Of a stretch of DNA of 64,000 nucleotides, positions 36,001 to 42,000 are shown piece after piece (within the stretch, counting starts at the first letter, position 1; each line of letters opens with the position of its first letter). This stretch comes from Candidatus Omnitrophota bacterium (GTDB lineage: Bacteria; Omnitrophota; Gorgyraeia; Gygaellales; Profunditerraquicolaceae), in contig JAQURX010000001.1 of assembly GCA_028715415.1 (NCBI GenBank), forward strand, positions 24,386 to 88,385. The letters run 5' to 3'. The position numbers are program-made.

Positions 36001-39000
36001 CTTAATACGGCAATAAAAGTAGGCTCGAGAGTTTGGGTAAATTTTGCTAACAGAAAAGTTGTTGGTTATGTTGTAGGATTAACGCATAAAAGTGCTATCA
36101 AGCAGCTTAAGCAAATATCAGGTTTGGTAGATTTTAATCCTATCCTTGATAAAAATTCATTTCTCCTCGCTAAAGAAATTTCTTCTTACTATGGTTGTTC
36201 ATTGGGGCAGGCGATTGAAACAATTTACCCAGATTCTCTTAGAAGAGGAAAACCGCTTCAAAATATTATAATTCCACAAGGCCATCCCCAGCTTCCTAAA
36301 AAAGAAGTTATCCTAATTCATGATTTGTCAGGATTCAATAGGTGGGAAGTCTATTTAGAGCATTCAAAGCAAGCTTTAAAGAATAAGGAAGCGGTAGTAA
36401 TCATTTTACCTGATATAAAAGCAGTTTTAAGAGTCAAAGAATTAGTTAAAGAAAAGCTGGGCATTGAACCTACAATTTTATACAGGAATCAACCTAATGA
36501 ATTGGAAGAGTGGAGTAAAATTAAGTCCGGAAAAACTAATTTTGTAATAGGGACTCGTTCAGGTATTTTTGCACCAATGTCAAATCTCGGACTTATAATT
36601 ATCGACGATGAACACGATTATGTTTATAAGCAAGAGCAGTCCCCTCATTATAACGCAAAAACAGTAGCTTTGATGAGGACAGAAATTGATAAAACAAAAT
36701 TAATTCTTGGCAGCAGTTCTCCTTCGTTGGAGAGCTATTACTTGAGTAAAAAGGATAAGCTTAAATTGCAGATTATTCCAAGAAAACTCAATTTTCCACA
36801 AGTACATGTAATTGATACAAGGCGAATATCATTCGAAGATAAGAAGAGAAAGAATATTCTTACTAAGTTTTTGGAAGATGCAGTTTACTCAAGTTTACTT
36901 GCTAAAGGTAAAACGCTTTTATTTTTGAACCGAAGAGGATTTGCAACTTATGCATTTTGCCATAATTGCGCAGTTGCCTTAAAATGCCCTCGTTGCAATA
37001 TTAGTTTGGTGTATCATTTTAAAGAAAATTTATTAAGCTGCCACCATTGTAATTACAAGATTACACCACCTAAAATTTGTCCAAATTGTAATTCCGGATA
37101 TATTAAATTCGCTGGGTTTGGGACGGAAAAAATTGAAAGCGAGCTTTCAAGGATATTTCCTCAGGCTCGCATTAAGTTATTAGATGATGCAAGCCATGTC
37201 GATATCCAAAATGCAGACATATTTATAGCAACAAGCACTATATTTAAATTTACAAAAATAAATTTTGATCTTGTTGGGGTTTTAGCTATCGACGATACTT
37301 TAAACCGAATGGACTTTCGTTCAGGAGAAAAAGCATTTTCTATTATTTCCGGGTTAGTAAGCCTTACAGAAAATAAGATTATCATTCAGAGCAGTTTTCC
37401 TGGGCACTATTGTTTACAGGCATTTTTGAAGAAAGACCCAATTTCATTTTATGAGCAAGAATTAAGCTTAAGAAAAGAATTGGATTATCCTCCTTATAAG
37501 CATATGATTTTGGTTAAACTTCGTTCTGAGATAGAGGAAAAATCCAAAACTGCCTGCCTTACTTTATTTGATAAATTAAGAAAATCCAACAAAGAAAAGG
37601 CTATTAAAATTGTTTCAGTTAATGCCGGCATGCCTGCGAAATTAAGAGGTAAATTTTATTGGCAGATAATGATTCTTGCGGGAGATGCCAAGGAGGCAAA
37701 TAAATTCTTAAAAAATCAATTAGCAGATTTTTTGCATTCAGGTATAATAGTTACAATAGACGTGGATCCAGTTTAAATTATCCTTTTGGAAAGGTGAAAT
37801 TTTGTAATGAATATAATCTTTTTTGGTAGCTCACAATTTGCTCAAAGTTCATTAGCAGCTTTGCTTGAAAGAGGCTATAAAGTTTCTTGTGTCGTTACTC
37901 AGCCTGATAGAAAGAAAGGTAGAGGAATGCATTTGGAGCCTACTTCTGTTAAAGCTTTGGCAATAGAACACGGTTTAGAAGTTTATCAGCCGGATGATAT
38001 AAACACGAATGAATCCGGTAGCTTCTTAAATAAGTTTAAGCCTAATTTATTTGTTGTTGTTGCGTACGGCCAGATTTTATCCGAAGAAGTTTTAAAAATC
38101 CCGAGTGTTTTTTCGATAAATGCCCACGCGTCATTATTACCTAAATACCGAGGAGCTTCTCCGATTAACCGCGCATTAATTAACTCCGAAGTTAAAACTG
38201 GGGTAACGATTATTAAATTAACTAAGAATATGGATGCTGGCCCAATAATCGCTCAGGAAGAGATCTTAATTAAAAACGAAGACGACTCTATTATTTTGGG
38301 AGAAAAGTTATCAAAGCTTTCTGCTGAGCTTTTAATCAAGGCAATTATAGCGATAGAGAATAACAAGTATGAATTATTGGAGCAAGACGAAAATAAAGTT
38401 AGTTTTGCTCCTAAGCTTAAAAAAGATGACGGCTTAATCAATTGGAGTAAGAGCGCTAATCAAATTAATGATTTAATCCGCGGCTGCCTGCCTTGGCCCG
38501 GAGCTTTTACTCATTACAATTCTAAATTGTTAAAGATATTCCGGGCTGAAGTTGGCTCGATTCAGAATTTAGATTTACCCGGTAAGATAATTGAAATCTC
38601 CAAAGAAGGCCTCCGTGTGTCTACTTCCAAAGATAGCTTAATTATCAAAGAATTACAGATTGAGGGCAAGAGAAGGATGAAGGTGGAAGAATTTATTGCC
38701 GGCCATAAGATTTGCGTCGGAGAAATGTTAAAATAAGAAACTATTTGATTTTAAGTTATTCTTCTGATAAAATTATTCTTTAAATAGAAAGATCAAAAAA
38801 TATGCCAGAATTAAGAAAAGATCCGGTTATAGGAAGGTGGGTTATCATTGCAACTGAAAGGGCAAGAAGGCCTGATCAGTTTTCAACCCAGCCGCATGAA
38901 GGCCCTGTTGAAGGCAAATGCCCTTTTTGCGAAGGCGTTGAATCTCAGACACCTCCTGAAATATACGCCGTAAGGCCTAACCGCAGCGCTCCAAATACTC

Positions 39001-42000
39001 CCGGTTGGGATTTAAGGGTTATCCCTAGCATTGCTCCTTTTTTGAAGATTGAAGGAGAACTTGATCGTCGAGGTAAGGGTTTGTATGACTTAATGAATGG
39101 CGTTGGCGCCCATGAGATTATTGTTGAAACAAATAAGCATATAGATAATATGGCGGATTTAGGTGAGGAGCAGATTTCTAAGGTAATTACCTGCTATATT
39201 GATAGGATTGTTGATTTAGAGAAGGATAAGCGGTTTAAGTACGCGCTTGTTTTTAAGAATCATGGTTGGGTTGCTGGTGGAAGCGGAGTAAAGCATTCAA
39301 GGTCACAATTAATTGCAACTCCGGTTAATCCTAAGAGAGTAAAAGAAGAGCTTGTTGGTGCGCGGCAATATTTTGAGTTTCACGAAAGATGTATTTTCTG
39401 CGATTTAGTTAAGCAGGAGTTAGCGTCAAAAGAAAGGCTTATTCTTGATCTTGACGGATTTATTGCAGTTACTCCTTTTGCGGCAAGATTCCCTTTTGAA
39501 GTTTGGATTTTACCGAAGAAACATTCTTGTGATTTTGTGAGCCTAGATATGGATTCACGCCTAAATTTGGCGCGTATAATGAAAAAAGTCTTTTCAAAAC
39601 TTAAAAAAGGTTTAAATGATCCACCTTATAATTATGTTATTCATACAGCACCATTCAGGCGTCAAAAAGGTGGATATTGGAAAACAATTGATCAGGATTA
39701 CCATTGGCACATCGAAATTATGCCCCGTCTTACCCGTGTAGCAGGTTTTGAGTGGGGGACAGGTTTTTACATCTGTCCACTACCTCCAGAAAATGCTGCG
39801 GAATTCTTAAGAGGGGTAGAGGCTTAATATGGCTGAATTAAGAAGAGACCCGATTATCGGAAGATGGATTATCGTAGAAACGGATCAGCCTAATAAACCC
39901 GAAGATTACGTTCATGAACAATATGTCCCTAAGGGAGGAGTTTGTCCGTTTTGTTATGGCAATGAGTCGATGACTCCTCCGGAAATAGATTCTATCAGGC
40001 ATTTAGATACCCAAGCTAATTCTTCGGGTTGGCAGGTTAGAGTTGTCCCTAACAAATTTCCTGCTTTGCAAATTGAAGGTGAATTAGATAGACGTGGAAT
40101 TGGGATTTATGATATGTCTAATGGAGTTGGTGCTCACGAAGTTTTAGTTGAGACGCCATATCATCACAAGGATATTCCTGATCTATTAAATGAAGAAATT
40201 GAGAATTTTATTGTAATGTATTGCAGGCGCATAAATGATTTGGAAAGAGACAAGCGTTTTAAATATATAATGCTTTTTAGGAACTATGGCGCTGCTGCAG
40301 GGGCTTCTTTGGAGCATCCTCATACCCAGTTGATTGCTCTTCCTATGGTGCCAAAGAATGTTATGGAGGAATTAAGGGGGTCGGAGAATTACTTTGATTT
40401 TCGTGACAGGTGTTTGTTTTGTGATATTATCAGGCAAGAGAATCAGGAAAAAGAAAGGATAGTATTGGAAAATAAATATTTTATCGCTTTCTGCCCGTAT
40501 GTTTCGAGATTCCCTTTTGAAACCTGGATAATTCCAAAGAAACACAATGGTTCTTTTTCTCGCATGCCTCATGAAGAAATACCGGCATTTGCCGCCATAT
40601 TAAAGGATACTATTTCGAAATTAAAGAAAGTTTTTGTTAATTTGTCGTATAATTACATAATTCATAGTTCGCCGATTAATGGCGATGGAGGGCAGGATAG
40701 TTATCATTGGCATCTGGAATTAATGCCTAAATTAACCCGCGTTGCAGGATTTGAATGGGGGACAGGATTCTATCTTGTCTCAACTCCTCCGGAATTAGCC
40801 GCGCAATATTTGAAATCCGTATAGTTAAGAATATAATAACAATTAACAAACACCTGGCGCTTATCGGCGCCTGGCGCAAATAGGCATTGCGCCAGCATGC
40901 GCTTGTGCGCAAATTGCGCCAGTACCCTTTAAGGGCAAGGAGGTAACAAATGGCAGTAAAAGTAGGTATCAATGGTTTTGGAAGGATTGGCCGTCTGGTC
41001 GCAAGGGCTATTTTTGAGAAAAAGAATTCTGGCCTTGAATTAGTCGCTGTGAATGATTTAACTGACGCCAAAAGTAACGCTTATTTGTTTAAGTATGATT
41101 CAGTGCATGGGAGGTTCCCCGGGGAAGTAAAAGCAGTAGGGGAGGATTCAATTTCAATTGATGGTAAAATCGTAAAGGTTCTTTCAAAGAAGGATCCTTC
41201 AGAGCTTCCATGGAAAGATTTAGGAGTTGATATTGTTGTTGAGTCAACAGGTCTTTTTACCGTTAAGAAAGATGGAGTTAATAAAAAGGGCAAAGAGGTA
41301 AAAGGAGCGGAAAATCATATTACCAAAGGCGGGGCTAAGAAAGTAATTATTTCAGCTCCTGCTGAAGGTGAAGATATAACTATAGTTATGGGTGTTAATG
41401 AAGATAAATATGATCCTAAGAATCATAGCGTAGTTTCAAATGCTTCCTGTACGACGAATTGTCTTGGCCCTATTGCAAAGGTTATGAATGATAAATGGGG
41501 AATTGAAAAGGGGTTAATGACCACAATTCATTCGTATACCAATGATCAAAGAGTGCAGGATATGGCTCATTCTGATTTAAGAAGGTCGCGTGCAGCCGCT
41601 GTTTCAATGATTCCAACATCGACGGGTGCGGCAAAAGCGATAGGTTTAGTTGTTCCGGAATTAAAGGGTAAATTAGACGGGTTTGCAATCCGTGTTCCTA
41701 CTCCTAATGTTTCGGTAGTTGATTTAACCTGCTCTTTATCAAAGAAAGTAACCGTTGAAGAGCTTAATGCGGCTTTTAAAGAAGCTGCTGAAGGAAGGAT
41801 GAAGGGCATCTTGGCAATTACGATGGATCCAGTTGTTTCTGTGGATTTTAACCATTGCTTGCTTTCGTCAATAGTGGATGGTTTAAGCACAAAGGTTATC
41901 CAGGATAATTTTGTTAAAGTCCTATCTTGGTATGATAATGAATGGGGCTATTCTAATAGGGTAGTTGATTTAGCTGAATATATGGTGAAAAAAGGCCTAT

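Follow-up and report, generated by a model that had tools for sequence, protein, structure and literature searches.

Two adjacent genes, here called P1 and P2, were analysed in a stretch of 64,000 nucleotides (the window) from a Candidatus Omnitrophota bacterium (assembly GCA_028715415.1, contig JAQURX010000001.1, positions 24,386 to 88,385 of the forward strand). Both encode GalT-family proteins (GalT, galactose-1-phosphate uridylyltransferase), and the sequence evidence makes it probable that they pair up as subunits of a single heterodimeric enzyme, which would belong to the class I GalT/ADP-glucose phosphorylase family. An earlier note on this DNA had reported two adjacent open reading frames (ORFs) of 341 and 331 amino acids (aa), 1 nucleotide (nt) apart, and both were recovered as described; the junction reads GCT TAA T ATG, with the single base 39828 lying between the stop codon of P1 and the start codon of P2. 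The two proteins aligned end to end with 50% identity (E = 1e-125), which is far beyond chance. The features of the two genes are given below with the evidence for each; cis and trans refer to residues serving the active site of their own chain and that of the other chain, respectively.

38802..39827, + strand: P1, GalT-family paralogue without the nucleophile, 341 aa, proposed non-catalytic subunit donating trans residues (ORF, Pfam, match to 1z84, predicted fold, and the ratio of non-synonymous to synonymous substitution rates, dN/dS)
38859..38870, + strand: P1 Arg20 to Arg23 (TERARRP), equivalents of Escherichia coli Arg28 and Arg31 (clade conservation; trans role according to PMC5081055)
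39027..39041, + strand: P1 Ser76-Ile77-Ala-Pro-Phe80, degenerate cis nucleotide-binding loop, which is NKFPA in P2 and in single-copy enzymes (alignment)
39279..39308, + strand: P1 G160-S-G-V-K-H165-S-R167-S-Q169, pseudo-catalytic motif with a one-residue insertion (alignment); the codon of Arg167 is AGG, at 39300-39302
39657..39698, + strand: conserved insertion specific to the P1 clade, RRQKGGYWKTIDQD, residues 286-299 (clade consensus FrR.k.GYWktId.DY)
39729..39770, + strand: C-terminal block of P1, LTRVAGFEWGTGFY, residues 310-323, sugar-phosphate-binding element (aligns with E. coli Tyr316/Glu317/Gln323)
39825..39831, + strand: P1/P2 stop-start junction TAA-T-ATG, for which translational coupling is proposed (sequence, and spacing in related genomes)
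39829..40824, + strand: P2, catalytic GalT-family paralogue, 331 aa (ORF, Pfam, match to 1z84, conservation of cis residues)
39886..39897, + strand: P2 Gln20 to Lys23 (TDQPNKP), the trans Arg positions, with Arg lost (alignment)
40051..40059, + strand: P2 Asn75-Lys76-Phe77, intact cis nucleotide loop (alignment)
40303..40329, + strand: P2 A159-S160-L-E-H163-P-H165-T-Q167, with zinc ligand His163, nucleophile His165 and Gln167 (aligned to E. coli Cys160/Ser161/His164/His166/Gln168)
40732..40773, + strand: C-terminal block of P2, LTRVAGFEWGTGFY, residues 302-315 (alignment)

The earlier note had also assigned a zinc site and a common C-terminal block to both proteins, the catalytic motif HPHTQ to P2 and the motif HSRSQ to P1, and each of these assignments held on alignment. 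The zinc ligands C40/C43/H104/H165 of P1 and C39/C42/H103/H163 of P2 align with Cys52/Cys55/His115/His164 of E. coli GalT, and this Cys-x-x-Cys...His...His site is invariant in the clades of P1 and P2. In P2, the motif is H163-P-H165-T-Q167. In P1, Arg167 shares its column with E. coli His166 and with His186 of the ADP-glucose phosphorylase At5g18200, both in pairwise HMMER comparisons and in MAFFT family alignments; no His was thus found at the nucleophile position of P1 when it was aligned to these two proteins.

Both proteins matched the Pfam families GalP_UDP_transf (PF01087) and GalP_UDP_tr_C (PF02744), the N- and C-terminal GalT domains, above the gathering score. Among proteins of solved structure, the best sequence match of each was Arabidopsis thaliana At5g18200 (1z84; E = 1.9e-69 for P1 and 1e-62 for P2), and the matches to E. 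coli and human GalT were far weaker (E = 1e-17 to 1e-24). The AlphaFold2 model of P1, built from an alignment of 128 diverse sequences, had a predicted local distance difference test (pLDDT) score of 95.7 and a predicted template modelling score of 0.93; a model for which only 26 close homologues had been aligned (pLDDT 35.5) was excluded from the fold searches. When the former model was searched with Foldseek, the top six Protein Data Bank (PDB) matches were At5g18200 chains (2h39/1zwj/1z84; template modelling (TM) scores 0.83/0.92; 36-38% identity), followed by archaeal, E. coli and human GalT, and the TM scores against 2h39, 1gup and 5in3 were 0.8-0.9, in line with the two-half-barrel fold of GalT. 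P1 is, on this predicted model, a well-folded class I GalT-family protein without the nucleophile. P2 carries every sequence feature that defines the class I GalT family, the H-x-H-x-Q nucleophile motif included. Since P1 lacks this defining nucleophile, it is a structural member of the family only and not a catalytic one. The identical public record (P0001, 100% identity) is named galactose-1-phosphate uridylyltransferase or DUF4931 protein, and hundreds of nucleophile-less database entries bear the former name, which for P1 is probably a systematic mis-annotation.

Complementary loss of active-site residues

In the dimers formed by class I GalTs and by At5g18200, the active sites lie between the subunits, and each pocket depends on the neighbouring subunit for its completion (bioRxiv 10.64898/2026.09.13.751320). 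In human GALT, Lys334-Gln346 of one chain and Gln188 and Asn173 of the other together make up the hexose-phosphate site, and the C-terminal residues matching the common block of P1 and P2 come from the other chain; Arg28, Arg31, Gly159 and Ser161 of the E. coli enzyme contact the hexose-phosphate moiety of bound UDP-glucose (PMC5081055). These positions were mapped in 41 P1-type sequences with Arg at the nucleophile position (window P1 included), three basal P1-type sequences with His, 38 P2-type sequences and 34 sequences of single-copy enzymes. The distribution for the Arg-type P1, P2 and single-copy sequences, in E. coli numbering, was as follows.

Arg28, trans: Arg in P1 (39/39), in P2 (2/38) and in single-copy enzymes (34/34)
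Arg31, trans: P1, Arg in 37 and Lys in 2; P2, Arg in 2/38; single-copy, Arg in 33/34
Asn77, cis: P1, Ser in 40/41; P2, Asn in 38/38; single-copy, Asn in 32/34
Asp78 (Lys in this clade), cis: P1, mostly Ile; P2, Lys in 35/38; single-copy, Lys in 32/34
Phe79, cis: P1, variable; P2, Phe in 36/38; single-copy, Phe or Tyr in 34/34
Cys160 (Ala in this clade), cis: P1, mostly Gly; P2, Ala in 38/38; single-copy, Ala in 33/34
Ser161, cis: P1, Gly or Thr in 35/41; P2, Ser in 38/38; single-copy, Ser or Thr in 33/34
His166, nucleophile: P1, Arg in 41/41; P2, His in 38/38; single-copy, His in 34/34

The P1 clade has, in addition, Phe in place of the Ala81 equivalent and a one-residue insertion just ahead of the pseudo-catalytic motif. 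At the trans positions of the window, P1 has Arg20 and Arg23, and P2 has Gln20 and Lys23. An unbiased scan of the 134 columns that are at least 85% conserved in single-copy enzymes gave the same picture: seven columns were lost in P1 alone (N77, D78, A81, C160, N162, H166 and T327), six in P2 alone (R28, R31, two conservative N-terminal changes and two others) and none in both. Since the cis set is kept in P2 and the trans Arg residues are kept in P1, the sole fully equipped site would be the one combining the cis residues of P2 with the trans residues of P1; the reciprocal site would be depleted from both chains, because the cis residues of P1 and the trans Arg residues of P2 are gone.

The nucleophile column was also read in 120 database clusters that share at least 77% identity with P1; it held Arg in 106 and Lys in 12, the remaining two being unmatched by the search pattern. 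The P1 Arg codons were mostly CGT or CGC, which are one transition away from the His codons CAT and CAC, with CGG, CGA and AGG also in use. Arg itself has thus been maintained through synonymous drift. The P1 clade is further marked by the insertion RRQKGGYWKTIDQD, in which G291, Y292, W293, I296, D297 and D299 are nearly invariant (GYWKxID at 291-297). The insertion, generalised as RRxKxGYWKxIDxD, sits just before the YHWH strand and is absent from P2, from the single-copy enzymes and from At5g18200.

Conservation of the pair and a natural fusion

Eighty loci were recovered when one genome per species was scanned. In all 43 P1-type loci, which came from metagenome-assembled genomes (MAGs) of Omnitrophota and of the Planctomycetes-Verrucomicrobia-Chlamydiae (PVC) group, the P1-type gene stood first, and a P2-type gene followed it in each of the 41 loci where the contig continues. 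The distance between stop and start codons was -8 to +4 nt in 29 of 34 pairs, with an overlapping TAATG in 12 of these, a spacing typical of translationally coupled subunits.

P1 and P2 formed one clade each in a neighbour-joining tree, and their identity to each other within a genome was 44-53% (35 genomes). Across genomes, the pairwise identities of P1 and of P2 correlated (r = 0.87), and P1 was better conserved than P2 in 88% of genome pairs (mean identity 66.8% versus 61.6%). Median dN/dS values, from eight genome pairs with unsaturated dS, were 0.053 for P1 and 0.062 for P2, and the P1 reading frame was intact in the 43 related loci as well as in the window. Judging from these comparisons, the pair is ancient, conserved throughout its clade and under strong purifying selection.

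A search of 1.84 billion representatives yielded 7667 family members at E ≤ 1e-3. The top match, P0121 (GCA_003558915.1, contig PWOP01000182.1), is a protein of 599 aa encoded by one ORF, known from this single contig, and consists of two modules. Module A keeps the N-terminal segment MSELRKDP...ERAKRP and a C-terminal half with LTRVAGFEWGTG; CxxC, NKFPAL and H-x-H-x-Q are missing from it, the whole N-terminal HIT half being gone. Module B, which shares 50% identity with P2, starts at ECPFC, so that it is without the N-terminal Arg segment, and carries NKFPAL, GAHE and AGASLEHPHTQ. The gene lies directly upstream of gap-pgk-tpiA-secG, which is the slot of the P1-P2 pair. P0121 and the pair thus have in common their syntenic position and the order of a dead followed by a catalytic unit; P0121 differs in that the genes are fused and both modules are further reduced. 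That the Arg segment survives on module A alone, which is itself without an active site, makes sense only if this segment works in trans.

Two divergent tandem pairs, both downstream of priA-(def)-fmt, repeat the split seen in the pair of the window. In L083 (GC content 66%), the P1-type protein has Arg at both trans positions and an H-x-R motif, and its P2-type partner has Gln and Pro with H-x-H-x-Q; in L084 (GC content 55%), the P1-type protein is the same in these respects, and the partner has Arg and Gly with H-x-H-x-Q. The prediction that P2-like representatives elsewhere would adjoin a P1-like gene gave a mixed outcome. P0179 has a nucleophile-less partner (Gln) in reversed gene order and an ambiguous Arg; the contigs of P0139 and P0198 are too short to judge; three further representatives, considered below, have no adjacent partner gene.

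Other arrangements were seen in the wider family. A distant pair (L091, 443-2578) has the reversed order, with a catalytic copy first (Asn and Lys at the trans positions, H-x-H-x-Q) and a P1-like copy second, in which Gln takes the place of the nucleophile, and Ile and Val those of Asn77 and Ser161; this Gln-bearing partner also contains the P1-type insertion. Of the best 150 of the 7667 representatives (P0121-P0270), about one tenth are without the His nucleophile, which is replaced by Arg, Tyr, Val, Cys, Ser, Ile or Leu, and many more of these 150 are without one or both trans Arg residues. Degenerate paralogues seem to have arisen repeatedly in the GalT-like family. A sister subfamily from Ignavibacteria and Zixibacteria, named after its motif P-IKHAHSQL (L063, L064, L076 and P0122), shares the one-residue insertion of P1, keeps the His nucleophile and Asn77, and is without both trans Arg residues. 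In Zixibacteria SM23_73_3, the copy of this subfamily (L064) is unlinked to the canonical copy of the same genome (L059), with which such a protein might pair, or it might work alone. A transcript of Eutreptiella gymnastica (P0165, 871 aa) encodes two complete tandem GalT-like domains, both with H-x-H-x-Q, and is in effect a covalent dimer.

Genomic context and predicted substrate

The immediate neighbours of the pair in the window are the following.

35917..38736, + strand: priA and fmt, conserved upstream neighbours (Pfam)
40950..42002, + strand: gap, encoding glyceraldehyde-3-phosphate dehydrogenase, conserved downstream neighbour (Pfam Gp_dh_N/Gp_dh_C)

An epimerase gene, a HAD phosphatase gene and a gene similar to those of monogalactosyldiacylglycerol synthases also lie upstream, followed by priA and fmt; downstream, gap is followed by rfbA, rmlD-like and rfbB genes. 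No galK, galE or galM was found in the neighbourhood of the pair. The order priA-fmt-P1-P2-gap is conserved across the tandem loci (gap in 38, priA in 30 and fmt in 33 of 44), and gap usually continues into pgk-tpiA-secG; throughout the phylum, the pair lies together with the lower-glycolysis genes gap-pgk-tpiA. In the window, the genes after gap are dTDP-sugar genes (42231-44846; an rfbA-like nucleotidyltransferase, an RmlD-like reductase and a dTDP-glucose dehydratase-like gene) and not pgk-tpiA-secG, and a clear terminator-like hairpin lies 3' of gap (42033-42063).

The spacer between P2 and gap (40825-40949, core 40850-40925) is unusually GC-rich and contains TGGCGCAA once on the + strand and twice inverted. 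As RNA, its folding energy was -43.4 kcal/mol (z = -2.0), and a strong promoter-like site, TTGAAA-16-TATAAT, is present at 40810-40837. The Rfam scan of the window, spacer included, gave no matches. The spacer sequence is not conserved in related loci, several of which hold hairpins or short tandem repeats at this place that are unrelated to it. The spacer of the window may act as a leader of gap, or it may be a small repeat element.

The single-copy relatives of the pair lie in a different setting. In 23 of 37 loci, glgA is immediately downstream, and glgC, GH57 and glgB genes and a histidine kinase/response regulator pair are nearby; L045, L046, L050, L055, L067, L068 and others show the order (histidine kinase-response regulator)-glgC-galT-like-glgA-GH57-glgB. 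Fusions were also found, namely a GlgA (Glyco_transf_5 + GT1)-GalT-like protein of 814 aa (P0167), which belongs to a 19-member cluster from independent assemblies, including Coprothermobacterota, and GH57-GalT-like proteins of ca. 860-875 aa (P0177 and P0212). For At5g18200, activity as an ADP-glucose phosphorylase and not as a GalT has been reported (PMC6329318), and Omnitrophota MAGs encode glycogen synthesis (PMC8542988). The available part of a 2024 review of alpha-glucan enzymes makes no mention of GalT-like or HIT enzymes, nor of an ADP-glucose phosphorylase step in the glycogen metabolism of bacteria.

Because of the homology to At5g18200 and the genomic context of the relatives, the most likely reaction of the pair would be NDP-glucose + Pi <-> NDP + glucose-1-phosphate (NDP, nucleoside diphosphate; Pi, inorganic phosphate), proceeding via a nucleotidyl group on His165 of P2, with ADP-glucose as the probable substrate. 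The proposal of the earlier note, that a pair next to gap and outside any Leloir operon serves a role other than galactose catabolism, such as an ADP-glucose phosphorylase-like function, agrees with At5g18200 being the best match, with the lack of gal genes nearby and with the presence of relatives in glycogen operons and fusions.

A putative heterodimer and its alternatives

In the homodimeric relatives, each site is composed of parts from both chains: one chain gives, in cis, the nucleotide loop, the Ser residue within the G-x-S loop and the H-x-H-x-Q motif with the nucleophilic His, and the other gives, in trans, the two N-terminal Arg residues and the C-terminal sugar-phosphate block. In the proposed P1:P2 heterodimer, P2 would give the full cis set (Asn75-Lys-Phe, Ser160, His163, His165 and Gln167) and P1 the trans set (Arg20, Arg23 and its C-terminal block), which would make one competent composite site. 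According to the ping-pong chemistry of the family, an attack of P2 His165 on the alpha-phosphate of an NDP-hexose would give a covalent nucleotidyl-enzyme, from which the nucleotidyl group would then be handed to phosphate, in a phosphorolysis, or to a hexose-1-phosphate. The reciprocal site, built from P1 cis and P2 trans residues, would be dead, as it has Arg167, no equivalents of Asn77 and Ser161, and no trans Arg from P2. Phosphorolysis of ADP-glucose or another NDP-glucose would link alpha-glucan and glucose-1-phosphate metabolism to glycolysis. Since P1 keeps the zinc site, the fold and an always-basic residue, it appears to be a conserved structural and possibly ligand-binding subunit, and not a remnant.

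The earlier note had called the pair an obligate heterodimer of an active and a pseudo-enzyme subunit. The partnership itself gained support from four independent lines of comparison, namely the complementary loss, the co-occurrence and coupling of the genes, their congruent evolution under purifying selection and the P0121 fusion; that it is obligate is an inference. The case for the Omnitrophota pair lies in the combination of conservation and coupling, complementary loss, and the fusion together with the divergent pairs.

Several points weigh against this interpretation. A physical P1:P2 complex is inferred from complementary loss, fusion, co-occurrence and coupling, and thus indirectly. 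The cis/trans residue map was taken from the literature on human and E. coli GalT, the trans role of Arg28 and Arg31 being adopted from it rather than read from coordinates. Three distant representatives of the family (P0218, P0156 and P0149) have an intact His, lack both trans Arg residues and have no adjacent partner gene, so that the loss of both Arg residues alone does not prove dependence on a partner; in P0156 and P0218, the Ser161 position is occupied by Arg, which may be a replacement in cis that P2 does not have. Both proteins also keep more than the dead site seems to need, namely the C-terminal trans block in P2 and the equivalents of Asn153 and Gln168 in P1. The three basal P1-type sequences (L032, L037 and L038) keep the His. 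These proteins already have Ser for Asn77 and Gly for Ser161, and their partners are already without the trans Arg residues; the presence of the other losses while His is kept suggests that the site died before the change of His to Arg, the topology of the neighbour-joining tree being too weak to set aside a reversion. As for the substrate, ADP- or NDP-glucose is a prediction from homology and context, not from an assay, and the 64-kb window contains no glycogen genes, the only signal being a weak RfbA/GlgC cross-match. At the position of E. coli Asp78, P2 and the bacterial single-copy enzymes have Lys and At5g18200 has Leu, so that the base specificity may differ from that of At5g18200; the Asn94 equivalent is kept in P2.

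These points bear on how the heterodimer compares with other explanations of the same genes. P1 and P2 might form two independent homodimers, with P2 as a self-sufficient enzyme and P1 as a co-transcribed, non-catalytic sensor or regulator that binds nucleotide sugars or phosphate. The stand-alone His-bearing members without trans Arg or a neighbouring partner indicate that P2 might work alone, and the clade-specific insertion of P1, its invariant basic residue and its conservation, which exceeds that of P2, are as expected for a protein with its own function. This explanation, however, does not account for the loss of the trans Arg residues in P2 when exactly these residues and the C-terminal block are retained in P1, nor for the tight coupling of the two genes, nor for a fusion with the N-terminal Arg segment only on its dead module, and we regard it as unlikely. 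That P1 is an enzyme of altered chemistry, in which Arg or Lys stabilises the phosphate transition state for a direct non-covalent transfer or a hydrolysis as a second activity of the heterodimer or of a P1 homodimer, is an improbable alternative. It would fit with a nucleophile position that is always basic and under selection, and with the retention of the equivalents of Asn153, of the zinc ligand His164 and of Gln168; P1, however, is also without the nucleotide-loop Asn77 and the phosphate-binding Ser161, the Arg residues of its partner are gone too, and the literature search yielded no HIT enzyme of the GalT branch that works without the His nucleophile.

The public annotation as a genuine Leloir galactose-1-phosphate uridylyltransferase agrees with the database names and with the NCBIfam model TIGR00209 (galT_1), whose cut-off of 102.1 was exceeded by P2 (141.6) and, marginally, by P1 (104.3), despite its having no nucleophile. 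Against NF008724, the equivalog model of the E. coli type, both scored far below the cut-off of 448 (P1, 123.9; P2, 138). A Leloir function is also contradicted by the similarity to At5g18200 (E = 1e-62 to 1e-69), itself reported as an ADP-glucose phosphorylase and not a GalT, which is much stronger than that to the GalT enzymes of E. coli and humans (1e-17 to 1e-24), as well as by the absence of galK, galE and galM from the neighbourhood and the association of the relatives with glgA and glgC. The annotation was thus rejected on context and relative similarity, and we consider it very improbable. There is next to no likelihood that P1 is a decaying, functionless duplicate, a pseudogene in the making, even though it has lost the catalytic His and other cis residues. 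The dN/dS of ca. 0.05 found for both genes, the paralogue identity of 44-53% and the monophyly of both clades rule out a pseudogene or a recent duplicate, which the earlier note had named as one of two findings that would overturn its proposal; the intact frames, the conservation of P1 above that of P2 and the confident predicted fold speak against decay as well.

Within the heterodimer, the dead site of P1 may have been kept as a pocket for an anion or ligand, with a part in stabilisation or regulation, since the zinc site, the Asn153 and Gln168 equivalents, the basic residue, the insertion and the higher conservation of P1 seem to exceed what a passive scaffold needs. A bolder and rather doubtful version is that the dead site was rebuilt as a regulatory pocket for an anion or phosphometabolite, making P1 an allosteric sensor that couples ADP-glucose and alpha-glucan turnover at the one live site to the state of lower glycolysis, whose genes lie with the pair; it draws on the invariant Arg/Lys, the GYWKxID insertion and the stronger conservation of P1 than of the catalytic subunit. 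If this were true, bacterial enzymes of the At5g18200 type would be an unrecognised and widespread component of glycogen operons.

In a full-text search of the literature, neither a pseudoenzyme nor a heterodimer was found to be described for GalT or HIT proteins. If P1 and P2 are indeed the subunits of one enzyme, they would be, as far as this search shows, the first pseudoenzyme-partnered heterodimer found for the HIT/GalT branch, in a two-gene form that extends across a phylum. The pair would offer a very clean and experimentally tractable natural example of a symmetric interface-site enzyme turning asymmetric (asymmetric subfunctionalisation), and a natural experiment that separates cis- from trans-acting residues, with which the P0121 fusion independently agrees. 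For annotation, the consequence is that the whole bacterial clade is probably not Leloir at all, and the single-copy relatives, which lie between glgC and glgA or are fused to GlgA or GH57, suggest that glycogen metabolism in bacteria includes an under-studied ADP-glucose phosphorylase step.

The P1-P2 pair is not a new kind of system, as its fold and chemistry belong to a known family. Homodimers are the textbook form of class I GalT enzymes and of ADP-glucose phosphorylase. E. coli and human GalT (PDB 1HXP, 1GUP and 5IN3), the source of the cis/trans residue map, share with the pair the fold and the ping-pong motif of this HIT branch; they differ in having only ca. 22-24% identity to P1 and P2, and the pair is without a Leloir gene context. 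The sugar-binding residues Lys311, Phe312 and Val314 of E. coli GalT have no aligned counterpart in P1 or P2. At5g18200 (PDB 1Z84, 1ZWJ and 2H39) is like the pair in its zinc site, in the S/E-H-x-H-x-Q motif, which is that of P2, and in its dimeric class I GalT architecture. It is, however, a homodimer of identical, fully equipped chains, whereas the pair consists of one chain without the nucleophile and one without the trans Arg residues. Heterodimers with one consensus and one degenerate composite site are known among the heterodimeric ATP-binding cassette (ABC) exporters, and pseudoenzyme-activated pairs are known from trypanosomatids, namely deoxyhypusine synthase and S-adenosylmethionine decarboxylase (AdoMetDC)/prozyme. 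Their folds and chemistry are unrelated to those of P1 and P2; in common with the pair, they are paralogues derived from homodimers, with sites at the interface, reciprocal substitutions that leave one live and one dead site, and purifying selection on both genes.

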